Positions 37,923-55,069 of a stretch of 64,000 nucleotides of DNA are shown here, piece after piece. The position numbers were made by a program, and so were the translations under genes. The notes under the pieces were generated by a model. The model was not told where the DNA came from, ran no database searches, and saw nothing but the letters and a program-made list of their open reading frames with translations. Location of the stretch: NCBI RefSeq assembly GCF_057098645.1, contig NZ_CM169472.1; one strand, 5' to 3'. Numbering within the stretch: the stretch's first letter is position 1; each line of letters starts with the position of its first letter.

Positions 37923-38007
37923 GCCGAAGTGGCGAAATCGGTAGACGCAGTTGATTCAAAATCAACCGTAGAAATACGTGCCGGTTCGAGTCCGGCCTTC
38001 GGCACCA
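37923..38007 (+). tRNA. leuX: tRNA-Leu (anticodon CAA)
   Basis: 85-nt sequence GCCGAAGTGGCGAAATCGGTAGACGCAGTTGATTCAAAATCAACCGTAGAAATACGTGCCGGTTCGAGTCCGGCCTTCGGCACCA with long variable arm. Confidence 0.95.
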
Positions 38008-38171
38008 TTATTACTTCCAAGTCCATCCGAGTAAGTCCGATTATCCATTAAAAATCAATACTTTCAGCGATTTCTACGATCTTGGATCGTCCGAGGTTGT
38101 CCGTTGAAATCCGGATGTCATTGGGGGCATAATTGGGGGCATCTTAACTTCGATTAGAAATGTGCCCCCAA

Positions 38172-39446
38172 ATGAAGCTCAATGCTAGACAAGTCGAGAC
38201 AGCAAAGCCAAAAGACAAAAGCTACAAAATGGCCGATGGCGGCGGTTTGTATCTCGAGGTTTCGGCCAAGGGGTCTAAATACTGGCGCATGAAATACCGA
38301 CGCCCCTCTGACAAAAAAGAGGATCGCCTCGCTTTTGGTGTTTGGCCGACCGTGACGCTTGCTGAAGCTAGAACGAGGAGGGATGAAGCGAAAAAGTTGC
38401 TGGCGCAAGGTATAGATCCAAAAGCAGTACAGAAAGAGGCTCAAGCAGAGAATGCTGGTGCTTATAATTTTGAAACTATTGCTCGTGAATGGCACGCCAG
38501 CAACAAACGTTGGAGTGAGGATCATCGGGCGCGTGTTCTTCGCTATCTAGAGCTGTATATCTTTCCTTATATTGGCTTGTCTGATATCCGACAGCTTAAA
38601 ACTAGCCATCTTTTAGCACCGATAAAAAAAGTTGATGCCAGTGGTAAGCATGATGTGGCGCAGCGTCTTCAGCAACGTGTTACTGCTATTATGCGCTATG
38701 CCGTACAGAACGATTATATAGATTCAAATCCTGCAAGTGATATGGCTGGTGCGTTATCGACAGCTAAAACGCGGCACTATCCAGCTCTACCATCACATCG
38801 TTTTCCTGAGTTCTTAGCACGTCTTGCTGCATATCGTGGTCGTATGATGACGAAAATTGCGGTTGAACTTTCTTTATTAACATTTGTTCGTTCCAGTGAG
38901 CTACGTTTCGCTCGCTGGGATGAATTCGACTTCGATAAATCTCTATGGCGTATACCTGCAAAACGCGAGGAAATTAAAGGCGTACGTTACTCATATAGAG
39001 GAATGAAGATGAAGGAAGAGCATCTCGTTCCACTTAGTAGGCAAGCGATAGGGTTGTTGGAGCAGTTAAAGCAGATTAGTGGTGATAAGACGCTGCTTTT
39101 CCCTGGGGATCATGACGCAACTAAGGTTATGAGTGAGAACACTGTTAATAATGCATTGCGTGCGATGGGCTATGATACGAAAACAGAAGTTTGCGGACAT
39201 GGTTTTAGGACAATGGCACGTGGTGCGTTAGGAGAGTCAGGATTATGGAGTGATGATGCTATTGAACGCCAATTGAGCCATTCGGAACGTAATAATGTGC
39301 GAGCTGCGTATATTCATACGTCTGAGCATTTAGATGAGCGCAGACTAATGGTCCAATGGTGGGCAGATTATCTTTATTCCAACAGAGAGAAGCATATCTC
39401 TGCTTTTGAATTTGCAAATAAACTTAATAAAAATAGCCTTGATTAA
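38172..39446 (+). CDS. intB: P4-type tyrosine integrase
   Basis: N-terminus MKLNARQVETAKPKDKSYKMADGGGLYLEV... typical of P4-family integrases, directly downstream of tRNA-Leu. Confidence 0.9.
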   Translation: MKLNARQVETAKPKDKSYKMADGGGLYLEVSAKGSKYWRMKYRRPSDKKEDRLAFGVWPTVTLAEARTRRDEAKKLLAQGIDPKAVQKEAQAENAGAYNFETIAREWHASNKRWSEDHRARVLRYLELYIFPYIGLSDIRQLKTSHLLAPIKKVDASGKHDVAQRLQQRVTAIMRYAVQNDYIDSNPASDMAGALSTAKTRHYPALPSHRFPEFLARLAAYRGRMMTKIAVELSLLTFVRSSELRFARWDEFDFDKSLWRIPAKREEIKGVRYSYRGMKMKEEHLVPLSRQAIGLLEQLKQISGDKTLLFPGDHDATKVMSENTVNNALRAMGYDTKTEVCGHGFRTMARGALGESGLWSDDAIERQLSHSERNNVRAAYIHTSEHLDERRLMVQWWADYLYSNREKHISAFEFANKLNKNSLD

Positions 39447-39613
39447 GTCTCCGCTTAGTTTGAACTAGCCTTCATCAACAGCAATGCTTGTGTCTTTTTA
39501 ACCTTCACTTAACAACTTCTTAGGCAATTATTCCATTGCTTTTAAAAACTAAGTATTCCTTAGTAATTTCGAGTGTAAAAAGTGCAAACCTACCTCCAAA
39601 AAGAGGATTTTCG

Positions 39614-39817
39614 ATGCTTCCAATTAGGTTAAAAAAAGCCCGATTGAATGCTGGGTTAACTCAAGAACAGTTGGGAATACTTGTTGGCATTGATGAATGC
39701 TCTGCCAGTGCTCGCATGAATCAATATGAGAAAGGTAAACATATGCCCGATTTTTCACTTACTAAAAAAATCGCTGATTTATTAAATGTCCCTGTCTCAT
39801 ATTTTTACACACCCTAA
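39614..39817 (+). CDS. XRE-family HTH protein, candidate restriction-modification controller (C protein)
   Basis: 67-aa ORF LKKARLNAGLTQEQLGILVGIDECSASARMNQYEKG..., SD aagagga upstream; precedes a putative R gene. Confidence 0.55.
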   Translation: MLPIRLKKARLNAGLTQEQLGILVGIDECSASARMNQYEKGKHMPDFSLTKKIADLLNVPVSYFYTP

Positions 39818-39911
39818 GATGACTTGGCAGAAATTATTTTGTTGATTAATAAACTAGACAAAAAACAGCGGTTAATTTTATTAAAAAATTTATCAGATGG
39901 ATTTATAAGTC

Positions 39912-40730
39912 ATGAATAAGCAAGAAGTTATACTTAAAGTGCAGGAGTGTGCTGCGTGGTGGATTTTGGAGAGACAAAGTAAACTAACAAAGTTAATGTC
40001 AGAAACAATGTCCATAAATCCGTTTATGACCCCTTTTATTTTTGATTATCATTCCCTTAATGATTTTGATGAACTAGTTGAAGCAATAATTGCTAAGCAT
40101 TTAATGACTGGGCATGATACTGGCTTTGGAAAATTGATTGATGAAAAAATACTTCCTAGAGTGTTTGGTGCATATAAATTAGATAAAAGTTATAGAGCTG
40201 CCAACGAGCCTTTTATACACCCTTGCTTTGATGAAATAGATCATGTAATACAAAGGGATGATGGTAGAATTGAGCTTTTATCTCTTAAGGCAGGGAAATG
40301 GACTATTCAATTGACGATGGCTGTCCAACTAAATAAAGCATTTCACGAAATCATAAATAATTATCCTGGAGTGGCTGACAATATAGTGGTTGGGGTTTTT
40401 TATGGAAATAGCCATGGATTAACTGATAAGTATAGAATCTTACGAGGTATCAATACTGGTGCAAACCACAATGTGATTGATATTCGTGACAAAGTGCATG
40501 TATATGCTGGTAAAGAATTTTGGTCATGGCTTAACAATGGTGAGGCTGAAACCCAGCATTGGGTACTTGAAGGTATAGAACGTGCTGTAAAAGAAGCAGA
40601 TATAAAAGAAAAAAATAAAGATCTTATTGAAAAATTCAAAGAACATGTTGCAAAGAAGTACAATGAGCAAGTTCTAAATGCTGATGGCACAGCTCAATGG
40701 CACAAATTACTTGAAATGATTAATGAATAA
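39912..40730 (+). CDS. uncharacterised protein, candidate type II restriction endonuclease (by context)
   Basis: 272-aa AT-rich ORF convergent with a C5-MTase and preceded by a C-protein-like HTH; possible PD-(D/E)xK-like segment DEIDHVIQRDDGRIELLSLK. Confidence 0.4.
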   Translation: MNKQEVILKVQECAAWWILERQSKLTKLMSETMSINPFMTPFIFDYHSLNDFDELVEAIIAKHLMTGHDTGFGKLIDEKILPRVFGAYKLDKSYRAANEPFIHPCFDEIDHVIQRDDGRIELLSLKAGKWTIQLTMAVQLNKAFHEIINNYPGVADNIVVGVFYGNSHGLTDKYRILRGINTGANHNVIDIRDKVHVYAGKEFWSWLNNGEAETQHWVLEGIERAVKEADIKEKNKDLIEKFKEHVAKKYNEQVLNADGTAQWHKLLEMINE

Positions 40731-40767
40731 AAAACTGGCCTAAGGGCCAGTTTTTTTATGACTAATT

Positions 40768-42021
40768 CTAAACTTCTTCTTCAAGGTCGTAGTAAGAAAC
40801 ATCTCCACTATATGCTTGACCATTTTTAAAGAAAGATCTGGTTCTAATATGCGGTCTAATATGGGTTTCTATATAATCTGGAGTTACTAAATCAGCAACC
40901 TTATTTTCTTGTATACGATGAAGAAGTTCCATAGCAGCTTCCCCTGCAACTTTACCTAACCGGACAGGAACTGCGTTACCTATCTGTCTGAATTTTTCTG
41001 TAGTTGTACCTTCAAATTTCCAGTAATCAGGAAACTCTTGTATCGCGGCAGCTTCACCAACAGAAATAGCTCTAAGTTCAGTTGGGTGGCACATACTTGT
41101 TCCCGCATGATTTGGCATTGTTACTACTGTGGGTGAAGGAAACTGGAAAGATAGTTTCCTCCAGTAAGCACTTCTTCCTCCTTTAAGATACCAGCTTTTT
41201 CCCATAGATTCTTTTTGCATTTCTTCTGGCATGCTTCTCCAGTTTCCGCCAGGTGGAACCATTGAAAGATATTTCAGTTTTCTTGGCGAAAAATTCATGA
41301 CTTCTGGATATTTATCAACAAAACCGCTCTCTGGGCCAATTACATCCCCCAGCGTTTTGAATGGCGGAAGATTATCTTCTACTCTATTGCTGAATAAAGG
41401 GGAGGCGAAATTGGCTATCATTCCGAAGCGATTACCAATTAAAATAACACGCTCCCTAATTTGTGGGGCTCCATAGTTGGCAGCATTAACTACAAAGCAA
41501 TCCACATGATAACCTAGTTTATTGAATTCGTTAGCTACCCTTTTTATTAGAGAGCCTTTTTCGAAAGCAGATGCTGCGATTGTGCCTGATAGCTCCTTCT
41601 TTTTAGAAGCTGGAACTATAGACATTGATAATAAACCGCGTACGTTTTCCATTACGAAAACTTTTGGGTTTAATTCTTTAATCATTCGAACGTATTCGAA
41701 AATAAGCTGCCCTCTGGCATCTTCTAGCCCTAACCTATTTCCAAAAACACTAAATGCTTGGCACGGTGGACCGCCAGCAACTAAATCTATTTCTTCTTTA
41801 TCATTCACTCCGGCTAGTGCTAATAATTCAGAGCCAGTGCAGTCAACAATACTACCTTCGAATACAGCAAGATTTGGCTTATTAGTTTTAATTGTTTTTA
41901 GAGCTGCCTTATCTTGTTCAACGCAAGCTACGAGCTCAAAGCCAGCCTCTTCGAGACCTAAGTCTAACCCCATTGCGCCACTAAATAGCGAAATAAACTT
42001 TTTACTAGACAAAATAATCAC
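40768..42021 (-). CDS. DNA (cytosine-5)-methyltransferase
   Basis: 417-aa ORF with motif I FSGAMG, motif IV GGPPCQAFS, motif VI ENV. Confidence 0.85.
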   Translation of the reverse strand: MIILSSKKFISLFSGAMGLDLGLEEAGFELVACVEQDKAALKTIKTNKPNLAVFEGSIVDCTGSELLALAGVNDKEEIDLVAGGPPCQAFSVFGNRLGLEDARGQLIFEYVRMIKELNPKVFVMENVRGLLSMSIVPASKKKELSGTIAASAFEKGSLIKRVANEFNKLGYHVDCFVVNAANYGAPQIRERVILIGNRFGMIANFASPLFSNRVEDNLPPFKTLGDVIGPESGFVDKYPEVMNFSPRKLKYLSMVPPGGNWRSMPEEMQKESMGKSWYLKGGRSAYWRKLSFQFPSPTVVTMPNHAGTSMCHPTELRAISVGEAAAIQEFPDYWKFEGTTTEKFRQIGNAVPVRLGKVAGEAAMELLHRIQENKVADLVTPDYIETHIRPHIRTRSFFKNGQAYSGDVSYYDLEEEV

Positions 42022-42337
42022 CTACATACTTAGCAGCCAAATACTAGGATATTGTAAAGGATTAACACTAATCCTCAACTCAAGTTTCAGGGATCTTAGC
42101 AGAATCTGCTTTGCAAGGATTCTATGAATGTAAATTAATAGATACTGGCGCGCAGTGCTTTCCCCGCCTCGCCCGCCCGCTTTGCAGGGCGGTTTTAATG
42201 CAGTTGCACAGTCACGCTCAGGCTGCGCCGGGAATGGCGCGGTCTGCAGAGAATGAGGCAGGAAAACGCATGCAAAGCCATGCACCTTATCGATGCATGG
42301 CTTTTTTCAGTAAAAACGGGAGGATTTTCGGGGAATT

Positions 42338-42910
42338 TTACACAGACTGACGTGATGCCAGTTGCGCACTTTTACGCGAAAAAATCATGTTCTGCGCAGG
42401 GGTGAATTTTTCACGGCTGTCATCCACCGAAGCCGCGTCAGGCCTGAATCCGATGGTCGTTAAAATGTCGCTATCCTGTGCGGAATAATTAATTTTTTCA
42501 CCCTTCGCAAGCCAGGACAGGAGGGCTTCACGCAGGGCATCTGTGGCACGCTGTATGGCACAGTTTCGGGCAATGGCCGTCAGCTCACTGTAGCCCATCA
42601 GCTCCGGTGCCAGTGCCGCCGCCAGTGCTGTGCCGTGCTGCTGCATAAAATCATTCAGCCGATCGCGGATGCTGATGTGCTGAACGGCTTCATGCGAACG
42701 AATATAACGACCGGCGGCCTGATTCACCTGCCATTTTCTGACTTCGATAATATTGCGTAATTCGTCCAGGCGACTGACGTTTCTGCCTTCTCCTGACAGA
42801 AGCCGCAGATATTCCTGTTCGGCCGCAGCCAGCTCATTTTTGCGTTGCAGCCATGCTGCTTTGTTATTCTGACAGGTGTCAAAGGCCTGCTGTAAGGCTG
42901 TGCTTTCCAT
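42338..42910 (-). CDS. psu: P4-like polarity suppression protein Psu
   Basis: 190-aa ORF at the end of the sid-delta-psu operon, length and position as in P4. Confidence 0.7.
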   Translation of the reverse strand: MESTALQQAFDTCQNNKAAWLQRKNELAAAEQEYLRLLSGEGRNVSRLDELRNIIEVRKWQVNQAAGRYIRSHEAVQHISIRDRLNDFMQQHGTALAAALAPELMGYSELTAIARNCAIQRATDALREALLSWLAKGEKINYSAQDSDILTTIGFRPDAASVDDSREKFTPAQNMIFSRKSAQLASRQSV

Positions 42911-42983
42911 CGTTATCTCTTTCTCATCATGCTGAAGAATAAAAATACGGTGTGCGGCGACGGCCGGGGTTAACCGGCAGCCC

Positions 42984-43484
42984 TCATTCCAGACGCAGCG
43001 AATATGATTGTGTTTTTAACCGTACTGGCGGCAGTTCCTGTTTTTCATGCAGGCTTTCTGCCAGTTCGTCCGGCGTGACCGGGCGGACAATGAAGCGGTT
43101 GATGGTCTGAAGCGTTTTAAACACCAGACCACAGCCCGGATCCGTGCACACATAAAAACGCTCGGTGACTTCCTGAGACAGACGCCGCGATGTTCTTGAC
43201 AGCGCAAGGCCTTTACATCTCCGACAACAATATCCGGTAACAAGCATTCTTTTCGGGCGCTTCATGCTACCGGAGGCTGACGTCAGTGAATCGCGGTATC
43301 TCTGTTTGCCTGAAATGTATTCCATTCCTGAATCTTTACAGTCAGAGAAAAAGCTTTCACTCGCTTCAAATGTCGCAGAGCAATAAATATTCCGGCACTG
43401 TGCAATCATTATCTTGGTGCCATCGTCCATGAAATGTGCGCGACGGGTGTGAGCAACATGTCCACACGACGGGCAGTAAATCAT
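42984..43484 (-). CDS. delta: P4-like Delta late-gene activator (tandem Ogr-type zinc finger)
   Basis: 166-aa ORF with two CxxC...CxxxxC zinc-finger units (CPSCGH...CRNIYC and CCRRC...CTDPGC). Confidence 0.8.
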   Translation of the reverse strand: MIYCPSCGHVAHTRRAHFMDDGTKIMIAQCRNIYCSATFEASESFFSDCKDSGMEYISGKQRYRDSLTSASGSMKRPKRMLVTGYCCRRCKGLALSRTSRRLSQEVTERFYVCTDPGCGLVFKTLQTINRFIVRPVTPDELAESLHEKQELPPVRLKTQSYSLRLE

Positions 43485-44215
43485 GACAGCAGTCCTCTGG
43501 CCTTAAGCACTGCTCCCTGCTGGTCTATTTTGTCCTGCCACACCTTGCGCTGTGCCGGTGTGCCTGCCACCTCATAATCCATGTGCGGGAGTGTTGCCGC
43601 TGACAGTCCGGTCAGCCGGAGAACCGGCTCGCCGGTGAGGCTGATTTGCATCTGTTTTATTTTCTGTTCCAGCGATGATTTCACCTGCTGCATGACAGCT
43701 TTATCGGGTGCGACGTAGCCCTGATGCCCGGTGGTGTTGGCGAGCGGATTTTCCTGTACCAGAATGCTCAGATGCATTGCCCGGACAAGCGCCTCACAGG
43801 TTTCATTCAGGGCGTGTTCCAGCTCATGCTCTGCATACAGACTCAGAAGGTGATGATGTGCCTTCCGGTAGGCGGTGGCCGTGCTGTCACACGCCCCTTT
43901 CAGGCGTTCACGTTCGAAATTCAGCACCACGGCCAGATTGTCATATTCCTGTACCAGCTCCCGGCGTGCCACGCGCTCAATGTGGCGCTGTTTCAGCTCG
44001 TCGCTCAGGACACCACCGGCTGCACGAAAGGCCGTGCGCCAGTCGTCAGCGTCGTTTCCGTCGGCCTGCGCCAGCGCATTTTTTTCCTGCTCTGCCCGTT
44101 CAATGGCCGTGACGGTCTCATCCATCAGTCGGGCGTTCTCAAGGTGGGCGGCTCTGGCCTTTTCCAGTTGTGCCAGTGCGGGTTGCAGATATTCAGGGAT
44201 GGTGTTGTCAGACAT
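43481..44215 (-). CDS. sid: P4-like Sid capsid size determination protein
   Basis: About 244-aa coiled-coil ORF upstream of delta; start assumed at MSDNTIPEYL. Confidence 0.7.
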   Translation of the reverse strand: MSDNTIPEYLQPALAQLEKARAAHLENARLMDETVTAIERAEQEKNALAQADGNDADDWRTAFRAAGGVLSDELKQRHIERVARRELVQEYDNLAVVLNFERERLKGACDSTATAYRKAHHHLLSLYAEHELEHALNETCEALVRAMHLSILVQENPLANTTGHQGYVAPDKAVMQQVKSSLEQKIKQMQISLTGEPVLRLTGLSAATLPHMDYEVAGTPAQRKVWQDKIDQQGAVLKARGLLS

Positions 44216-44287
44216 TTTCCGGCTCCTCGTCACTTCAGGTTAAGAAAATTGTGACGTACACCGGACAACAACACGACGCATTGCAGA

Positions 44288-44305
44288 TGTGCCAGCCCTG
44301 ACACA
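44288..44305 (-). promoter_or_regulatory. TGT-N12-ACA dyad, candidate Ogr/Delta activator site of the sid late promoter
   Basis: tgtgccagccctgacaca about 70-90 bp upstream of the sid start, matching the P2/P4 late promoter activator-site pattern. Confidence 0.45.
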
Positions 44306-44384
44306 GGAGACTCATCCTCAGACCGGCAAGCCAGGAAAAGGTCGCAGGAAAAACCGGCTTACTGTTTGTTTTTTTATATTTTAC

Positions 44385-44478
44385 TGTTCACCTCTGTTCA
44401 CCATAAGAAAAAAGATAAGTAATACAGTAAGTTAAATGGTGAACAATCGCAGTAATGACTGTTCACCGTCTGTTCACC
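44385..44478. repeat. P4 ori-like cluster of TGTTCACC iterons (alpha-binding type I repeats)
   Basis: Five TGTTCACC/GGTGAACA octamers within 95 bp. Confidence 0.6.
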
Positions 44479-44804
44479 CGTTGATGGACTTTTTGTGCTG
44501 TTTACTACTGTTTATTTTTATTAATTCACTGAAATAAATAAGAAAAAACAATTTGTATTTCACTATAATTTTTTCCAGCTCCTTCCAGAGCGTTTTAAAG
44601 CTATCTGGCGCTGATATACAAAAAATGCACAGCCATTGTAAGGCTGCCGGAACAAATCCCCCCTGTTGCGTCTGCCAAAAATATTCACAAAATAAAGCGC
44701 TACCCGAAGCCGGACGGACTTATCCGGTGCTGTATGGACATTAACGAGGTAGCCCGATGCAAGCTGTTTTTTCTTCCCCGTCTCCCGCCCCTGTGACGCC
44801 ACTG

Positions 44805-45023
44805 ATGCCGCTGCCGGACATCACGCAGGAGCGTTTTTTACGTCTGCCGGAAGTGATGCACCTGTGCGGCCTGTCACGCTCGACCATCTATGAACTCATC
44901 CGTAAGGGGGAATTTCCGCCGCAGGTGAGTCTTGGCGGTAAAAATGTGGCCTGGCTGCACTCTGAAGTCACCGCATGGATGGCCGGACGCATTGCCGGAC
45001 GCAAACGGGGGTACGACGCATGA
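44805..45023 (+). CDS. AlpA/Vis-family phage transcriptional regulator
   Basis: [51 protein letters not shown] matches AlpA-type HTH. Confidence 0.75.
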
Positions 45024-45412
45024 TAGTGCCCGCTCTGCAAAAACTCCCTTTTTCTGGCTTGCCTTTTTCCGGCATTTGCGGATATAGTTTTTCCGCTGCC
45101 GCAAAATCGGCAGCCGGGCGTGAGAACCCGTGTAGCTCGAAGGCGACATATGACGCGCCATGCGTCTTTTTTTGTGTCGCAATCAACGCCACAGAGCGCC
45201 AGATTATGGTGTGGCGTGTGGTTTGCCGTGCAGGTATGATCCTGTTCGCAATCGCATGTTATGCCACTGAGTCAATGGTAGCTCAGGCGGGGCAGCCTCC
45301 GGGCTGGCCGGTATTCTTCGAGGCCGGTATTCTCACCCCCGTCTGGGCTATCGCCATCGAGCGTGAGAACTCCGGCGATAGCAGTTATTTGCTACTCGAA
45401 GGAGGCTGCCTT

Positions 45413-45610
45413 ATGGCTACAACCCTTACCCCCTCACACCCTGAATTTGTCTTTGTGTTTGCGGCTGTCCGTCGCGCAGACCGTCATCCCCGTATCTGCA
45501 TGCTTCGCACCGTCGCCGGTGATGAACGCAGCGCCCGCCGTTCCCTTGTCCGTGACTATGTGCTCTCCCTTGCTGCCCGTCTGCCGGTGGTGGAGGTGTC
45601 CCGTGCGTAA
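45413..45610 (+). CDS. small hypothetical protein of the P4-like early region
   Basis: 65-codon ORF with strong SD ggagg 8 nt upstream; the longer listed ORF 44975..45610 is rejected. Confidence 0.35.
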
Positions 45611-45915
45611 TAAAAGCCCCTCAGACCGTCTCAGCGCGTCATGACGCCCGTGAACACCTCAGCATTGAGGCTTACCATAAGCTCAACCGCGCCAGCGCCG
45701 TATCCCGGTTTGTTGCAAAATGGCATCTGAATCGATCGCAGTTTGGCATTCGAATCGATCATGATTTGGCATCCATCTCCGATCACAGTTTGGCATCACA
45801 ATCGATCACGATTTGGCATGCTTCCGATCATTGATTGGCATCCTGCCAGTCACTCCGGGAATTAACTCTTTTCACCACAGTCTCCATTGCCGTGTTTAAA
45901 CCAGTGGAGACGTCA

Positions 45916-47481
45916 ATGTCCAGAAAGAGAAAATCCAGGAGCACTATGGAAACCTGTTTTAAGATCCTTCAGCTCAAGTTCGACAAGAAGCTGACTAACC
46001 GTTGTATCGGACTGACGTTACACATCAGCGCCTCAACCGTTTTTGAGGTTCTTGCCCGCTTCAAAGCCTCTTCTCTGTCATGGCCATTACCTGCTGATAT
46101 ATCCCATGACACGCTGGAGAAACTCATTTTTCCGCCCAAAGACACCTTTGCATCAGAGCTTGTAATGCCTGACATGTTGTACTTCGATACGGAAATGAGA
46201 AAACCAGGTGTGACGCGGCAACTGTTGTGGATGGAATACAAGGCACAGGCGGGTAACAAAGCGATGGGATACTCGCACTTCTGCCGTTGCTACCGGGAGT
46301 GGAAAAAAACGCGACGTCTCTCCATGCGCCAGGAGCATCGTGCCGGCGAAAAGCTTTTTATCGACTTCTGTGGTCCTACGGTTCCTGTTATTAATCCGGA
46401 CACCGGTGAGATACGCCGCGTGGCAATCTTCGTGGCCGTAATGGGGGCGTCCAACTATACCTACGTTGAAGCGTGCGAAGGTCAGGACATGATGTCATGG
46501 TTAAATGCCCACAGCCGTTGCCTGACCTTCCTGGGCGGCGTACCGAAGCTGCTCATCCCCGATAACCTCAGAAGCGCAGTGAAAAAGGCCGATCGATATG
46601 AGCCTGTCATCAACGACAGTTATCAGGCACTGGCTGAGCACTATGGCACGGTTATCATCCCGGCCCGACCACGCAAACCTAAAGATAAACCAAAAGCAGA
46701 AAACGGCGTCCTCATCGTTGAACGATGGCTTCTTGCCCGCATCCGTAATGAAACCTTCCACACGCTCAGGGCGCTGAATGCGCGCCTTAGGGAGTTACTG
46801 ACAGACATGAATAACCGGCCAATGAAGGGGTACGGCAATCAAACCCGTGCAGAACGCTTCCGCATACTGGATGCGCCAGCACTCTCTCCGCTGCCTCTGG
46901 CACCTTATGAATACACGGAATACAAAGCTGTGAAGGTTGGCCCTGACTACCACGTTGAATATGCCCGTCACTGGTACTCCGTTCCACACGAACTGGTCGG
47001 TCAGCGTCTGTCACTGAAGGCGGGGCAGTCGGTGGTACAGCTCTGGCACAAGGGGCAGTGTGTGGCGCAACATCCGCGCAGCACACATGAATATAAACAC
47101 ACAACCAATCCGCTTCACATGCCAGAGCGCCACCGGCAGCACGGGACATGGACACCGGAACGCCTGATCGAGCAGGGAAAACGTACGGGCCCGTCCACAG
47201 GCCGGGTGGTTGAATCCATGCTGAAGGCAAAACCCCATCCGGAACTGGCTTATCGTGCAGTTCTGGGGCTGCTGGCACTTCAGAAAAAATACGGCCCGGA
47301 ACGGCTGGAAAAGGCCTGTTACGTTGCCCTGCACTATAACGCCCCTGACAGACGCTTTATCGACAATCTGCTGCGTCACCATCGGGAGAACCTGGAGCTT
47401 CCATTATCCCGCCAGGGCGAACAACATCCGGCATATGCTTCAGAGCATGAAAACCTGCGTGGTCCGGGCTACTACCACTGA
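45916..47481 (+). CDS. istA: IS21-family transposase IstA
   Basis: About 520-aa ORF with N-terminal HTH and DDE-type core, followed by istB. Confidence 0.75.
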   Translation: MSRKRKSRSTMETCFKILQLKFDKKLTNRCIGLTLHISASTVFEVLARFKASSLSWPLPADISHDTLEKLIFPPKDTFASELVMPDMLYFDTEMRKPGVTRQLLWMEYKAQAGNKAMGYSHFCRCYREWKKTRRLSMRQEHRAGEKLFIDFCGPTVPVINPDTGEIRRVAIFVAVMGASNYTYVEACEGQDMMSWLNAHSRCLTFLGGVPKLLIPDNLRSAVKKADRYEPVINDSYQALAEHYGTVIIPARPRKPKDKPKAENGVLIVERWLLARIRNETFHTLRALNARLRELLTDMNNRPMKGYGNQTRAERFRILDAPALSPLPLAPYEYTEYKAVKVGPDYHVEYARHWYSVPHELVGQRLSLKAGQSVVQLWHKGQCVAQHPRSTHEYKHTTNPLHMPERHRQHGTWTPERLIEQGKRTGPSTGRVVESMLKAKPHPELAYRAVLGLLALQKKYGPERLEKACYVALHYNAPDRRFIDNLLRHHRENLELPLSRQGEQHPAYASEHENLRGPGYYH

Positions 47482-47497
47482 CAGAAGGAACAACAGT

Positions 47498-48253
47498 ATG
47501 AGTGATAACCTGTTAAACAAACTGACCCAACTGAAACTCCCGGCGATGGCCGGGAGCCTGATACGGCAGCGGGAAACGCCTCAGACCTACGACGAACTGT
47601 CGTTCGAGGAAAGGCTGACGCTGCTGGTTGATGACGAGCTTCTGAGCAGGGAAAACAGCCGTGTGGCACGGTTGAGAAAAAATGCCGGCCTGAAATACCA
47701 GGCAACACCGGAAGGGCTGCGCTATCCGGCCTCAAGAGGTCTGCGGGCTGAACAGATGAGAGAACTGCTGAACGGCCACTACATAACCCACAGGAAAAAC
47801 CTGCTGATAACCGGTCCGACAGGATGTGGCAAGAGCTGGATAGCCAATGCGCTGGGCGAACAGGCATGTCGACAGAAACACAGCGTCCGGTACTGTAGAA
47901 CCGGGCGATTACTGGAACAACTGGCTCAGGGACGTGTTGATGGCAGCTGGCTGAAATATCTGAAACAGTTGCAAAAAATACAGGTTCTAATCCTGGACGA
48001 TCTGGGGCTGGAACAGTTAAGTAACGCCCAGTGTAATGACCTTCTGGAGCTCATAGAGGATCGTTACGGACAAAGCAGCACGATAGTGGTAAGCCAGTTC
48101 CCGGTAGATAAATGGCATGGTCTGATGGAGAACCCAACAACAGCAGATGCCATCCTGGACAGACTGGTACATAACTCACACCGAGTGGTCCTTCAGGGAG
48201 AGTCACTGAGGAAAAATCCCCCGGTAGTGGAAAGCAGCGAAAAAACGCGTTAA
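47498..48253 (+). CDS. istB: IS21-family ATP-binding helper IstB
   Basis: Walker A GPTGCGKS, Walker B ILDDLG, C-terminal ILDRLVHNSHRVVLQGESLR as in IstB. Confidence 0.8.
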   Translation: MSDNLLNKLTQLKLPAMAGSLIRQRETPQTYDELSFEERLTLLVDDELLSRENSRVARLRKNAGLKYQATPEGLRYPASRGLRAEQMRELLNGHYITHRKNLLITGPTGCGKSWIANALGEQACRQKHSVRYCRTGRLLEQLAQGRVDGSWLKYLKQLQKIQVLILDDLGLEQLSNAQCNDLLELIEDRYGQSSTIVVSQFPVDKWHGLMENPTTADAILDRLVHNSHRVVLQGESLRKNPPVVESSEKTR

Positions 48254-48525
48254 AAAGCGGTAGAAAAAGTTAAGTTCCCGGTTGATCGAATGGATGCGAA
48301 TCGCTGATCGGACTTCGATGCCAATCCGTGATCGAATAGAGCGGAATACGCAGTTTGTTGGGGGTGATTTGATTCACCGTGAACTCTCCGGCCTGCATCA
48401 GCTCTACATTCCGCATATTTTCAGTTACCTGAATGAAGATATTGATTTTGTGCTGAATGAACTGAAAGCCAAAGGCCTGTGCCGCGATTTTCTCGCCCAG
48501 CAGAAAGACCGGGGAGACAGGACGC

Positions 48526-48981
48526 ATGTTTGATTTTCCCCAGCCCGGTGAGATTTACCGTTCTGCCGGTTTTCCCGATGTGGCCGTGGTCGGCATTCTG
48601 GAAGACGGTATTCCGTGGGAAATGCCGTACCGCTGCCCGGACATTGTCTGGAACCCGTACCGCCGTAAATTCAGTATCCTTGTGCGTATCCTCGCTGACG
48701 GGCGCACCACAGACATCCCGCTGGGGCGTTTTCTGCGGGAATTTACCTGTGACCGTCCTGACCTGTTTAAACGCAGCCCCGTAAACCGGCATGCGGTACT
48801 GAAAGAAATGGCCGGAGACCCGGAATTACAGAAATGGCGGGAGAAATATCTGGATATTTACCCGCAGGACCCTGTTCCGGTCAGCCGGGCGGCACCGGTG
48901 GCGCGGGAATGGCGGGAAATTCCCCGCACGGAGCCTGACCCGGAAATCACCCCGGATAACAGTTACCGCAATTATCTGTAA
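48526..48981 (+). CDS. P4-like early-region protein (orf151 equivalent)
   Basis: 151-aa ORF upstream of alpha in the same orientation. Confidence 0.5.
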   Translation: MFDFPQPGEIYRSAGFPDVAVVGILEDGIPWEMPYRCPDIVWNPYRRKFSILVRILADGRTTDIPLGRFLREFTCDRPDLFKRSPVNRHAVLKEMAGDPELQKWREKYLDIYPQDPVPVSRAAPVAREWREIPRTEPDPEITPDNSYRNYL

Positions 48982-49116
48982 TTAAAAAACGACACCCGAA
49001 AAATTAAATGTGCGTATTCGCGCAGGGATACGCACGTCTTCAGGAGACGCAGATATGCCTTATCAGTTAATGCAACCGGCACGGAATGCAGTCATCTGTC
49101 ACAGGGAGGAAAACAA

Positions 49117-49437
49117 ATGAAAACACCCTTACCGCCCGTCTTACGCGCTGCCCTTTACCGTCGCGCTGTCGCCTGTGCCTGGCTGACCGTGTGCGAACGT
49201 CAGCACCGCTACCCGCATCTCACCCTTGAGTCACTGGAAGCGGCCATCGCCGCTGAGCTGGAAGGCTTTTATCTGCGCCAGCACGGTGAGGAAAAAGGGC
49301 GTCAGATAGCCTGTGCCCTGCTGGAAGATTTAATGGAATCCGGCCCCCTGAAGGCCGCGCCGTCGCTGTCCTTTCTCGGGCTGGTTGTGATGGATGAACT
49401 CTGTGCCCGTCACATAAAAGCGCCGGTACTGCACTGA
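49117..49437 (+). CDS. P4-like early-region protein (orf106 equivalent)
   Basis: 106-aa ORF immediately upstream of alpha. Confidence 0.5.
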
Positions 49438-49451
49438 AGGAGAACAACACC

Positions 49452-51785
49452 ATGAAAATGAACGTAACCGCCACCGTCAGCCATGCGCTCGGCCACTGGC
49501 CGCGTATTCTCCCGGCGCTGGGGATTCAGGTGCTGAAAAACCGTCATCAGCCCTGTCCGGTCTGTGGCGGGAGTGACCGCTTCCGTTTTGATGACAGGGA
49601 GGGGCGCGGCACCTGGTACTGCAATCAGTGTGGTGCCGGTGACGGCCTGAAACTGGTTGAAAAGGTGTTTGGTGTCTCCCCGTCCGACGCGGCCGCAAAG
49701 GTGGCTGCCGTGACCGGCAGCCTGCCCCCGGCTGACCCGGCAGTGACGGCTGCCGCCGGTGCTGAAACAGACGCTGCCCGGAAGAACGCCGCCGCACTGG
49801 CACAAACCCTGATGGCGAAAACCCGTCCCGGAACCGGTAACGCCTACCTGACCCGCAAGGGCTTTCCCGGCCGGGAATGCCGGATGCTGACCGGCACACA
49901 CAGATCCGGTGGCGTGAGCTGGCGTGCCGGTGACCTTGTGGTGCCACTGTATGACGACAGCGGCGAACTGGTTAACCTTCAGTTAATCAGTGCTGACGGC
50001 CGTAAGCGCACCCTGAAAGGCGGACAGGTCAGGGGCACCTGTCACACCCTTGAAGGACAGAATCAGGCCGGAAAACGTCTGTGGATAGCGGAGGGATACG
50101 CGACCGCACTTACCGTACATCACCTGACCGGTGAAACGGTGATGGTGGCGCTTTCTTCCGTGAACCTCCTTTCTCTGGCCAGCCTTGCCCGGCAGAAGCA
50201 TCCGGCCTGTCAGATTGTCCTTGCCGCAGACCGTGACCTCAGCGGTGACGGCCAGAAAAAAGCCGCCGCAGCCGCAGATGCGTGTGAGGGCGTTGTTGCC
50301 CTGCCGCCGGTCTTCGGTGACTGGAATGATGCCTTCACGCAGTACGGCGGGGAGGCCACCCGTAAGGCCATTTACGATGCCATCCGGCCACCGGCTGAAA
50401 GCCCGTTCGACACCATGAGCGAAGCAGAGTTTTCCGCCATGAGTACCAGCGAAAAGGCCATGCGTATCTATGAGCATTACGGCGAGGCGCTCGCGGTTGA
50501 TGCCAACGGCCAGCTTCTGTCCCGTTATGAAAATGGTGTCTGGAAGGTGCTGCCGCCACAGGACTTTGCCCGGGATGTGGCCGGGCTGTTTCAGCGTCTG
50601 CGCGCGCCGTTCTCCTCCGGGAAGGTGGCCTCCGTGGTGGACACCCTGAAGCTGATTATTCCGCAGCAGGAAGCCCCCTCCCGCCGCCTGATTGGCTTTC
50701 GTAACGGCGTGCTCGACACGCAGAACGGCACGTTCCACCCGCACAGTCCGTCACACTGGATGCGCACCCTGTGCGATGTGGATTTCACCCCGCCGGTGGA
50801 CGGTGAAACGCTGGAGACCCACGCCCCCGCGTTCTGGCGCTGGCTTGACCGTGCCGCCGGTGGCCGTGCGGAAAAACGCGACGTGATTCTGGCCGCACTG
50901 TTTATGGTGCTGGCAAACCGCTATGACTGGCAGCTCTTTCTGGAGGTGACCGGTCCCGGCGGCAGCGGCAAAAGTATCATGGCCGAAATAGCCACCCTGC
51001 TGGCCGGTGAGGATAACGCCACGTCGGCCACTATTGAGACGCTGGAATCCCCGCGTGAACGTGCCGCGTTAACTGGCTTCTCACTGATACGCCTGCCGGA
51101 CCAGGAAAAATGGAGCGGCGACGGTGCCGGACTCAAGGCCATCACCGGCGGCGATGCGGTGTCCGTGGACCCGAAATACCGGGATGCGTACTCCACGCAT
51201 ATCCCGGCGGTGATTCTGGCCGTGAACAATAACCCGATGCGCTTCACCGACCGCAGCGGCGGCGTGTCACGCCGGCGGGTGATTATTCACTTCCCGGAAC
51301 AGATAGCCCCGCAGGAGCGCGACCCGCAACTTAAGGACAAAATCACCCGCGAGCTGGCGGTCATCGTGCGTCACCTGATGCAGAAGTTCAGCGACCCGAT
51401 GCTCGCCCGGTCACTGCTTCAGTCCCAGCAGAACTCAGACGAGGCACTGAACATCAAACGGGATGCCGACCCGACGTTTGATTTTATCGGCTATCTGGAA
51501 ACCCTGCCGCAGACCAGCGGCATGTATATGGGGAACGCCAGTATCATCCCGCGTAATTACCGTAAATACCTCTATCACGCCTATCTGGCCTACATGGAGG
51601 CAAACGGCTACCGGAATGTACTCAGTCTGAAAATGTTCGGGCTGGGGCTGCCGGTGATGCTGAAGGAATACGGGCTGAATTACGAGAAGCGCCATACCAA
51701 ACAGGGGATACAGACCAACCTGACGCTGAAAGAGGAAAGCTACGGCGACTGGCTGCCAAAATGTGACGACCCTGCAACAACCTGA
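49452..51785 (+). CDS. alpha: P4-like alpha primase-helicase
   Basis: 777-aa ORF with N-terminal zinc-binding primase motif (CPVCGG...CNQCG), Walker A GPGGSGKS, P4 position. Confidence 0.85.
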   Translation: MKMNVTATVSHALGHWPRILPALGIQVLKNRHQPCPVCGGSDRFRFDDREGRGTWYCNQCGAGDGLKLVEKVFGVSPSDAAAKVAAVTGSLPPADPAVTAAAGAETDAARKNAAALAQTLMAKTRPGTGNAYLTRKGFPGRECRMLTGTHRSGGVSWRAGDLVVPLYDDSGELVNLQLISADGRKRTLKGGQVRGTCHTLEGQNQAGKRLWIAEGYATALTVHHLTGETVMVALSSVNLLSLASLARQKHPACQIVLAADRDLSGDGQKKAAAAADACEGVVALPPVFGDWNDAFTQYGGEATRKAIYDAIRPPAESPFDTMSEAEFSAMSTSEKAMRIYEHYGEALAVDANGQLLSRYENGVWKVLPPQDFARDVAGLFQRLRAPFSSGKVASVVDTLKLIIPQQEAPSRRLIGFRNGVLDTQNGTFHPHSPSHWMRTLCDVDFTPPVDGETLETHAPAFWRWLDRAAGGRAEKRDVILAALFMVLANRYDWQLFLEVTGPGGSGKSIMAEIATLLAGEDNATSATIETLESPRERAALTGFSLIRLPDQEKWSGDGAGLKAITGGDAVSVDPKYRDAYSTHIPAVILAVNNNPMRFTDRSGGVSRRRVIIHFPEQIAPQERDPQLKDKITRELAVIVRHLMQKFSDPMLARSLLQSQQNSDEALNIKRDADPTFDFIGYLETLPQTSGMYMGNASIIPRNYRKYLYHAYLAYMEANGYRNVLSLKMFGLGLPVMLKEYGLNYEKRHTKQGIQTNLTLKEESYGDWLPKCDDPATT

Positions 51786-51792
51786 CCCACCT

Positions 51793-51818
51793 GACCGGCA
51801 TCTGCCGGTCTTTTTTTA
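51793..51818 (+). terminator. intrinsic terminator downstream of alpha
   Basis: ccggcatctgccgg hairpin followed by a T7 run. Confidence 0.6.
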
Positions 51819-51825
51819 TCCCGAC

Positions 51826-52115
51826 ATCCCCCGAAGGTGAACAATCCACTGTTCACCCTTCACCGTATATTCACCCGTTATCACACTGAAATTAAAAGAG
51901 AAAAACGAAAGGTGAACAGTGTGAACAATCAAATCAAAAAAAACTTTTTTCTCCCTGCGTGATTTTCAGTGCAGGGGACTAATCGCCGGTATGAGTCACA
52001 CCGGCAGAATACCGGAGGTGAAGAATCGAATGTTCACCCTTCACCCATTATTCACCACCTATCATACTGAAATAAAAGGAGAAAAAAGAAAGGTGAACAG
52101 TGTGAACAGTTCTTT
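51826..52115. repeat. crr-like cis replication region: two direct repeats of about 105 bp, each carrying TGTTCACC/GGTGAACA iterons
   Basis: Copies at about 51831-51935 and 52005-52110, near-identical. Confidence 0.65.
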
Positions 52116-52320
52116 CGAAAAAAAATTTTTTATGTGGATAAAAGATGCACTGGTTTGGATCCGAGCTACGGATCCAAACTTACTGATTAAAAATGATTTA
52201 ACTTTCCGATTTATTGATGGGCTGAAAATAGATTGGTCAGAAAAACAGTGGGGGCACAAAAGGGGGCATATTTCATTGTTGTGTTTTATTATTTGTTTTT
52301 TATCATTAACTTATTTTGAT

Positions 52321-52344
52321 GTTTGAGTCCGGCCTTCGCACCAC
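52321..52344 (+). repeat. degenerate direct repeat of the tRNA-Leu 3' end (attR-like island boundary)
   Basis: gtttgagtccggccttcgcaccac versus tRNA 3' end gttcgagtccggccttcggcacca. Confidence 0.55.
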
Positions 52345-53020
52345 ACCGTATGCAAATCGAGTCGCTCAAGGGCGGCTTTTTTTGTGTCTGAAATCACCCA
52401 TATCCGTGCAGTATATAGGCCTGCCAGAAAAGCAGTTCAGTATTCTTCATTTTGTAGTCGATGGTCCCAAGTTTGCTCTGGCTGGAAGCTGCATCGTCCA
52501 CATTACGTGGGCAGGGTGGTTTCGCTATGCTACTTGAACGTTTTGACCATGTGGCTCAGGTAGCTAATATCAAAAGACGTCATTTTGTCTCCACGCCCAC
52601 CTTGGTGAACATTCAATAAATAGTTTCGGTCGAGAGCAGTTATGTAGGGCTAGCAGACGAGATGCGCAGACATCTTGTTGAAGACAATTATACTGACCAC
52701 CTGAGAACGCTATTCTACCGAATAATATTTATTATCTTGGCGAATAATGATGATTACCTGTGTAACTATGGTTTTATGCTGATGGGACCGGCAGTACAAT
52801 TTCTGTAGTGTACTCGCAATTTCAGATCTCTGGCGTTTATTCTGGTGCAAAGGAGGTATGTGATGAAAACTTTGCTACCATGCCATTAAATGCGACCAAT
52901 ATCGGATTATCCATCAGTTGCTTGTCGTAGATTTCATTGGTTATAAAAATGCAAGGTGTAAAAGATGAAATTTATAATTATTAGTTAAGTGGCTAGTTTT
53001 ATAGTAATTTAGACAATAGG

Positions 53021-55069
53021 ATGTATGGAAAAATGGAAAAAGTTTATGATACCACTAGAATTAGTAATCTTGCTAACGACCCGAAACAGTTTTGTTCTTT
53101 TTTTTGTGAGTACATAAAAAGAGATGATATTAGTATAGATATCGCCTTGGATGTGCTGAGAATATCTTCCATCTATTATAATAGATTTTCAGTTCAGACT
53201 GAAGTTGAGTATAACAATACATTCAAAAAATGTATTAATGAGCTAGTAAACTCATTTCCTGATAACATTGAACTAATTTCTGAGTTCGAGAGTCAATGTA
53301 AAATTATGCATGATATAAATAATTCTTTCTTTGCGGCTACAAAATGTGCTGGTATTTGGCGTGAAAATACAAAAAAATCACATGCATTAATACTTAATCT
53401 CATCATGTTTTGTGAGATGTTTTTATCATCATTATCATCCTTGGTTGTGGTCAATGATCCTAAAAAAATGAAGAGGATTTTTCCATTATTTATCGTTTCT
53501 GAAAATATTAATATTCATGCTGAACCTGATATCGAATATTTTCGAGTTATCGATAGGGCATTTGATGAGGTAGCCAATTACACCGGAAGAATATTTTCTT
53601 ATTTACGGACTCATGAGCCATTGAAACTAACTTCTTGTGTGAATAAACAAACCTTGCTTTCAATGGGAGGGTACCTTAATGAGTGGAATGTTTTTGACTC
53701 ATTAAGCAGAGTAAGAGACTTTTTCAGACTAAGTAGTGCAGTATTTACAAAATTGGATAATAACATTTACTCTCTTGAGGTTGATAGTTTTTGTTTATAC
53801 CGAGATTATGAGATTGCAAGAAATAGACTAATGATGAGAGCGTCACATCTATATAGCGAAGTTCATGAATTTAGTAACAAACATTTTCATCTAAATAGTT
53901 GGGTAAAGGATCATATGCCATCTTACTTAAATTCTGATGGCGTTTTTAGCTCATTTCATCTAAGCGAGTTGGAAAATATGTCTCCTGATGACCTTCATGA
54001 AGAATATGGGAATATATCATTATTTAATTGGGTGCACGCTTATCAATGTTTAGTCGAGTTATCTAAAGAAGAAATGAGCAAAAGATTTTCATCGACAAAA
54101 CCTATACCCCTACAGTTGGATCGCTGGCTGATCATAAAAAGCCGTGAGAGTTGGTTATCATTCTTTCAACGTAAGGGGATTGCAGCAGATGCAGCAAAAA
54201 AACTGATAGATTATTTTACCTTCAATTCAAAATCACATGATCTTAATGATTGCCCATTTATTCCCTGTATGGACGGTTTATGCTTAATGCCTGCATTCAT
54301 AGCAAATAGCTCAGTGACTCGCTCTCTAATGTCATTATTTGGTTCCAAAAAAATTTCTCAAGCAAGTAAAGGGCGATTTCATGAGCAACAATTTATAAAA
54401 CAAGTTCGTGATGCGGGGATTAAAGCTTCTCCAATTGATGCTCATGCTAATTATCAGTGCGATTGCGTGATTCTCCTGGATGATTGTTTGATTTTTACAG
54501 AACTAAAATCAAATGGTCAACCAATATATTATGGTAAGTACTATCAGCAAGTGTGTAACATCGTTGGAGATAGCTCATTAATACATGATCATAATAATAA
54601 ATTTATGCGTTCTTATTTTCAACAAATAAATCGAACTTCTGAACATTATCTTAATCATCTTGATGTGATCATTAAAGAATTCGAACTACCATCAACATGG
54701 CAACCCAAAGGTGTGTATAAGCTTATTGTTACTACAACTATGCTCGGTGGGAAATATCATGTGGATGATACATATGTAGCGGACAAATATGCATTATCTA
54801 GTTTTTTTCAACGAATACCTGGAGTGATATATCAAACAAATGAAAATGGAGAAATGGCGAAAAATATCATTGATGGGTTTGAGTGTTGCGAAGGGGAAAT
54901 CACTATCGATAAGTTTATAGATTATCTTTCCTCTTTGCCCGGTATTAATGCTGTACGTAAAAATATACAAAAATTAACTTATAGTGTTCGATTTAATGAA
55001 AAACTAGTCCATCACCCTTATTATGATTCTTGGGCTTTTGGCCCATATATTCGTAAGGGAAATGATTAG
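53021..55069 (+). CDS. large AT-rich hypothetical protein, no recognisable motif
   Basis: 682-codon uninterrupted ORF in an island of low GC; standalone gene flanked by long noncoding regions. Confidence 0.55.
   Translation: MYGKMEKVYDTTRISNLANDPKQFCSFFCEYIKRDDISIDIALDVLRISSIYYNRFSVQTEVEYNNTFKKCINELVNSFPDNIELISEFESQCKIMHDINNSFFAATKCAGIWRENTKKSHALILNLIMFCEMFLSSLSSLVVVNDPKKMKRIFPLFIVSENINIHAEPDIEYFRVIDRAFDEVANYTGRIFSYLRTHEPLKLTSCVNKQTLLSMGGYLNEWNVFDSLSRVRDFFRLSSAVFTKLDNNIYSLEVDSFCLYRDYEIARNRLMMRASHLYSEVHEFSNKHFHLNSWVKDHMPSYLNSDGVFSSFHLSELENMSPDDLHEEYGNISLFNWVHAYQCLVELSKEEMSKRFSSTKPIPLQLDRWLIIKSRESWLSFFQRKGIAADAAKKLIDYFTFNSKSHDLNDCPFIPCMDGLCLMPAFIANSSVTRSLMSLFGSKKISQASKGRFHEQQFIKQVRDAGIKASPIDAHANYQCDCVILLDDCLIFTELKSNGQPIYYGKYYQQVCNIVGDSSLIHDHNNKFMRSYFQQINRTSEHYLNHLDVIIKEFELPSTWQPKGVYKLIVTTTMLGGKYHVDDTYVADKYALSSFFQRIPGVIYQTNENGEMAKNIIDGFECCEGEITIDKFIDYLSSLPGINAVRKNIQKLTYSVRFNEKLVHHPYYDSWAFGPYIRKGND

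Follow-up and report, generated by a model that had tools for sequence, protein, structure and literature searches.

Replication of P4 and related systems

The alpha protein of the satellite phage P4 recognizes type I iterons (TGTTCACC) through its C-terminal winged-helix domain, both in the origin ori1 and in the cis required region for replication (crr); alpha then acts as helicase and primase, and bidirectional theta replication starts at ori1. The crr is required in cis, and the Cnr protein limits copy number. To our knowledge, the P4 initiator needs no DnaA, DnaB or DnaG. The minimal ori1 reportedly measures 123 bp and holds six iterons and a 35-bp AT-rich region. Deletion of one iteron is said to inactivate it, which is taken here as a lead and not as a test, and a second origin, ori2, reportedly lies inside alpha and works with crr. 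Among iteron-controlled plasmid origins with a remote cis-acting partner, the gamma origin of R6K with its initiator pi is similar to P4 in that short direct and inverted initiator repeats lie by an AT-rich segment and that a second iteron cluster acts in cis from kilobases away, presumably by looping. P4 differs from R6K-type systems in that its initiator is itself helicase and primase, and there is no sequence relationship between the two. Here we describe the counterpart of the P4 replicon in a 64,000-nucleotide stretch of Escherichia coli DNA (contig NZ_CM169472.1, assembly GCF_057098645.1; the whole stretch is referred to as the window), which carries a P4-type satellite prophage of about 14.3 kb at leuX (37988-52343). 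The octamer clusters on either side of its alpha gene are the ori1 and crr of a P4 replicon, in a prophage that is likely in early decay, with replication probably impaired.

Iteron clusters on both sides of alpha

Compared by megablast with phage P4 (X51522), the region 44000-52400 was 97% identical, in two pieces split by a 2.6-kb insertion. Direct BLAST to P4 gave 96.0% identity for 42174-45715 and 98.4% for 48353-52343. Both octamer clusters are 94 to 98% identical to the sites annotated as ori and crr in the P4 GenBank records (X51522 and X05623), and the alpha gene lies between them. The initial annotation had recognized this organization as that of P4 ori and crr. As read from the sequence, the identification is correct, and the ori/crr/alpha architecture is already known, because the P4 records annotate the homologous sites. 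The parts of the replicon are as follows.

44385-44478: ori1, with five type I iterons TGTTCACC (44385+, 44395+, 44438-, 44460+ and 44471+); their P4 counterparts carry the label "ori type 1 repeat"
44403-44437: AT-rich spacer of 35 bp (17% G+C) between iterons 2 and 3, with three substitutions relative to P4
48526-48981, plus strand: orf151, intact, with two amino-acid differences from P4
49117-49437, plus strand: cnr (orf106, DUF5375), copy-number regulator gene directly upstream of alpha; protein identical to P4 ORF106
49452-51785, plus strand: alpha, primase-helicase-origin-binding initiator, a full open reading frame (ORF) of 777 amino acids
51793-51817, plus strand: alpha terminator, in which a T run comes after a G+C-rich hairpin ("talpha" in the P4 annotation)
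51831-51950: first crr direct repeat, 120 bp, with iterons at 51836-, 51850+, 51868+, 51911- and 51920- ("crr 120bp direct repeat" in P4)
52012-52131: second crr direct repeat, 120 bp, with iterons at 52017-, 52031+, 52049+, 52092- and 52101-

The octamer is strongly enriched. Counted on both strands, the window holds 13 exact copies of TGTTCACC versus 1.72 ± 1.26 expected from 100 dinucleotide-preserving shuffles, none of which reached 13. The five copies that the initial annotation had reported within 44385-44478 are all exact, and the Poisson probability of at least five exact copies in 94 bp is 9e-16. Exact copies outside the replicon (23961, 52604 and 56500) are isolated, as chance predicts.

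Downstream of alpha, exact octamers are found at 51836-, 51850+, 51911-, 52031+ and 52092-, and octamers with one mismatch at 51868, 51920, 52017, 52049 and 52101, so that each repeat carries five iterons, the same number as in the P4 annotation. Two octamer-bearing direct repeats had been proposed here at approximately 105 bp (51831-51935 and 52005-52110); the repeats themselves stand, but their size is 120 bp. They are 83% identical to each other, with a start-to-start spacing of 181 bp, compared to 180 bp in P4. Pairwise alignment of the region with P4 crr gave 98% identity, and all 12 sites with a TTCAC core in it agree with P4 in sequence, position and strand. The P4 records label the homologous region "crr (cis required region for replication)". 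The window and P4 thus share the octamer, the iteron positions and orientations, the pair of 120-bp crr repeats with five iterons each and the order sid-ori-vis...cnr-alpha-crr-att, at 96 to 98% nucleotide identity.

The alpha gene was checked for inactivating mutations, and none were found. It differs from that of P4 by 38 scattered substitutions in 2,334 nucleotides, which amount to 7 substitutions over the 777 amino acids (770/776 identical residues by BLASTP). Zinc-ribbon, Toprim, D5_N, DUF5906 and Pox_D5 domains were recognized, and residues 671-770, the origin-binding domain, are 100% identical to PDB 1KA8, the solved fragment of P4 alpha. The P4 protein is known to combine Toprim, superfamily 3 (SF3) helicase and winged-helix domains in one polypeptide (PMC2777425). 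The two clusters would make up a bipartite origin of the P4 type, with ori1 on one side and crr downstream of alpha; alpha would bind TGTTCACC at both and then unwind and prime from ori1.

Loss of an iteron from ori1

The cluster that corresponds to ori1 is placed between sid and orf88/vis of the left operon.

43481-44233, minus strand: sid
44757-45023, plus strand: orf88/vis

The P4 feature tables list six "ori type 1 repeat" sites at ori, with which the sites in the window align position for position. However, the window has five iterons, compared to six in P4. A 10-bp unit is gone from the right-hand triplet, between the last two iterons, and the deletion junction lies near 44469/44470. The cluster in the window therefore falls one short of the complete, regularly spaced set of six. 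The AT-rich 35-mer that the iterons flank is present and is presumably the unwinding region of ori1.

In 957 of 5,426 complete E. coli genomes, the 96-bp origin segment was matched over its full length. About 950 of the 957 (~99%) carry the six-iteron allele, with a span of 106 bp, and seven carry the five-iteron allele (95 to 96 bp). This near-fixed iteron count in about 950 genomes lends small but independent support, at the population level, to a constraint on iteron number.

The origin region differs from that of P4 in one further respect. P4 has three annotated 10-bp "ori type 2 repeats"; the window lacks them and has diverged sequence without obvious periodicity in their place (44569-44618). 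Decay was ruled out as the reading of this divergence, since the same allele is found in two other apparently intact P4-like elements of E. coli (L003 and L004). The diverged allele is common in E. coli, which suggests that conservation of the origin does not extend to the type 2 repeats.

Iterons 3 and 4 form an inverted pair at 44438-44467. The resulting 11-pair hairpin was flagged on the minus strand by the terminator scan, but it probably just reflects how the two iterons are oriented and is not a terminator.

Insertion of ISSso4 into the left operon

The 2.6-kb insertion that splits the match to P4 lies in epsilon, downstream of the left-operon promoter region.

45059-45088, plus strand: the sole sigma-70-like promoter match in 44200-52400 (TTGCCT-18-TATAGT), in sequence conserved in P4, just after orf88/vis and upstream of ISSso4
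45603-45713, plus strand: 5' remnant of epsilon (ash), frameshifted
45714-48352, plus strand: ISSso4 (2,639 bp, IS21 family), inserted in epsilon; istA and istB are also on the plus strand

The insertion, already called an IS21 element in the initial annotation, shows 100% identity along its 2,639 bp with copies on plasmids that are annotated as an IS21-like ISSso4 element. Its proteins IstA (DDE transposase) and IstB (AAA+ helper) contain the domains rve, Mu-transpos_C_2 and IstB_IS21. The element has TG...CA ends with the multiple terminal repeats typical of the IS21 family, and it is flanked by a short target duplication of 6 bp (GTTTGT, 45708-45713 and 48353-48358). A search for the ISSso4 junction in the same 5,426 complete E. 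coli genomes found none, and the best matches end exactly at the insertion boundary.

ISSso4 breaks epsilon at approximately codon 38. The remnant upstream of the break is also frameshifted by a 2-bp deletion in an A-run (45612-45615), which reads AAAA in the window versus AAAAAA in P4, in L003 and L004 and in the related prophages of E. coli strains TUM9757 and 7784; a stop follows after 13 codons.

The promoter match at 45059-45088 is presumably at the position of PLE, the early left-operon promoter of P4. A crude consensus scan found no promoter between ISSso4 and alpha, which is a weak negative. The transcription unit PLE/PLL-epsilon-orf151-cnr-alpha is split by ISSso4 in the window and would no longer be a single unit. 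Because the element separates orf151-cnr-alpha from the left-operon promoter region, expression of alpha would now depend on read-through across 2.6 kb of foreign DNA.

State of the replication module

The closest relatives of the prophage among those free of the insertion element are two leuX sisters, in E. coli TUM9757 (NZ_CP128931) and E. coli strain 7784 (NZ_CP018247). They are 98.3 to 98.7% identical to it over the whole element and share its attachment site, integrase, restriction-modification (R-M) cassette, 19-nucleotide attR variant and crr. In contrast to the window, both have six iterons and an intact epsilon. The lost iteron, the epsilon frameshift and the ISSso4 insertion are three private lesions. 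These would place the prophage in early decay, with ori1-dependent replication weakened or lost. In this copy, either ori1 replication or alpha expression probably suffers, if not both.

The initial annotation had favored the view that the replication module of the satellite still works in spite of the insertion. Its basis stands to the extent that alpha, cnr and crr are intact. However, one of the six ori1 iterons is lost, and ISSso4 cuts the operon with no promoter-like site downstream, so that the claim is probably too optimistic. On the sequence evidence, it is rather doubtful that the module works as it does in P4.

Several observations weigh against impairment. The five-iteron allele is also found in the P4-like element of E. 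coli UTAK-1, located at a tRNA-Thr gene, and it may be tolerated, because that element is otherwise intact-looking. The remaining iterons would keep their phasing, because the 10-bp deletion corresponds to about one helical turn. The promoter scan was crude. No terminator-like site was found by the scan on the plus strand between ISSso4 and alpha, so that alpha could still be expressed by transcripts that read through from PLE/PLL or istAB. The reported ori2 could bypass ori1.

A module that is fully functional, with the insertion and the origin variant of no consequence, would agree with the UTAK-1 allele and with the missing terminator-like site. It would also agree with the intact alpha frame with its 7 substitutions and its origin-binding domain identical to 1KA8, and with the identity of Cnr and of every crr iteron to P4. 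We nevertheless consider it unlikely, as an iteron is lost that ~99% of E. coli copies keep, alpha is parted from the sole promoter-like site, the closest relatives are free of all three lesions, and deletion mapping reportedly showed ori1 to be inactive once an iteron is missing. That the five-iteron ori1 itself is a natural, still functional variant of the origin likewise seems improbable, even though it recurs in seven or more complete E. coli genomes, one of them with an element that is otherwise intact.

Alternatively, ori1 may be dead and replication may proceed by the oriII replicon (ori2 inside alpha, together with crr), provided that alpha is expressed. Both crr and alpha are intact, and with only 38 scattered substitutions in alpha, a 36-bp internal site is likely conserved. 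However, the problem of alpha expression applies equally, and oriII is not known to have more than a limited part when P4 propagates naturally. We regard this route as quite unlikely.

The intergenic position of the iterons, between the divergent sid and orf88/vis genes, is what could be expected if they served mainly as transcriptional operators between the sid and left-operon promoters and not as an origin. The same octamer is found in crr, which lies past a terminator and has no gene to control, and the P4 records label the sites as origin repeats. Beyond the location, no evidence for an operator role emerged, and such a role is very improbable. Chance or low-complexity repeats without a specific role, in favor of which there is only the shortness of the motif, can be dismissed from the shuffles and the Poisson estimate, as well as from the conservation of the octamer positions, one by one, with annotated P4 sites. 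A P4 replicon with an impaired ori1 or poorly expressed alpha, in a decaying prophage, is the reading that we prefer.

Extent and gene order of the prophage

The prophage is bounded by attachment-site cores at leuX and downstream of crr.

37923-38007, plus strand: tRNA-Leu(CAA) gene leuX (ARAGORN)
37988-38007: attL core, the last 20 nucleotides of leuX, an exact match to the P4 attP core GAGTCCGGCCTTCGGCACCA
52325-52343, plus strand: attR core and right prophage end, 19-nucleotide variant GAGTCCGGCCTTCGCACCA, placed by alignment to P4 and the sister prophages

The shorter attR core, by 1 nucleotide, was considered as a private excision defect; this was ruled out, since both sisters carry the same 19-nucleotide core. 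From left to right, the element comprises int (38160-39446), a variable region, cos (~42174), psu, delta, sid, ori, orf88/vis, epsilon, orf151, cnr, alpha and crr. The core set that defines P4-like elements (PMC8628076), consisting of int, psu, delta, sid, alpA/vis, epsilon and alpha, is present in full and in P4 order, with the tRNA site and the att repeats, although epsilon is a pseudogene. Nearly one in two E. coli genomes carries such an element (PMC8628076). The integrase gene is more distant from P4, with only 83% nucleotide identity.

Restriction-modification cassette and neighboring defense genes

The variable region of P4-like elements, between int and cos/psu, is a known defense hotspot (PMC9122126). 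In the window, this region (39536-42021) holds a type II R-M cassette in place of the cII-beta-gop region of P4.

39536-39817: C (control) protein of the R-M cassette
39912-40730: restriction endonuclease, with a weak Pfam match to RE_EcoO109I (1e-5)
40768-42021, minus strand: m5C methyltransferase

The same cassette was found in 68 complete E. coli genomes. The EcoO109I system reportedly belongs to a leuX-integrated P4 prophage whose sid gene holds an IS21 element. We did not equate the cassette in the window with EcoO109I, since the Pfam match is weak and the insertion here lies in epsilon. Between the methyltransferase gene and cos, an ORF of 87 amino acids (42022-42285, minus strand) without a family match may not be a gene.

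E. coli S3 (NZ_CP010228, 16032-17616) carries the same leuX prophage with the R-M cassette, cut inside sid by an IS3-family element, and the segment from ori to crr is missing. Insertion elements have therefore degraded this prophage lineage by at least two independent routes, with the R-M genes kept.

Downstream of the prophage, a type II Zorya anti-phage system is encoded on the minus strand (57104-60634).

57104-58207, minus strand: ZorE
58211-58918, minus strand: ZorB2
58925-60634, minus strand: ZorA2

Just past attR, an ORF of 682 amino acids (53021-55069, plus strand) is annotated as "hypothetical protein" in 99.9% identical E. coli O145 genomes, and it had no Pfam or PADLOC match. Beside it, an HNH-domain protein (55692-56720, minus strand) is annotated as a phosphorothioated-DNA-binding restriction endonuclease. 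From its place in a defense island, the 682-amino-acid protein is a candidate for an unknown defense gene.

Significance

The origin described here is a textbook P4 origin, the parts of which were sequenced and annotated in 1987 to 1990, and it carries little weight beyond annotation. Both the five-iteron allele and the ISSso4 insertion represent variation at the level of strains. The practical value lies in the correct reading of the locus as a leuX P4-like satellite with a type II R-M cassette. If the five-iteron ori1 were functional, P4-type origins would tolerate iteron loss in vivo, contrary to what plasmid deletion mapping reportedly showed, and iteron number might tune satellite copy number. 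The length of the prophage, 14.3 kb, exceeds the capacity of a P4-size capsid, which is roughly 12 kb (PMC9122126). With this size and its lesions, the element looks like a satellite that is becoming a fixed, defense-carrying remnant and not a mobile element.

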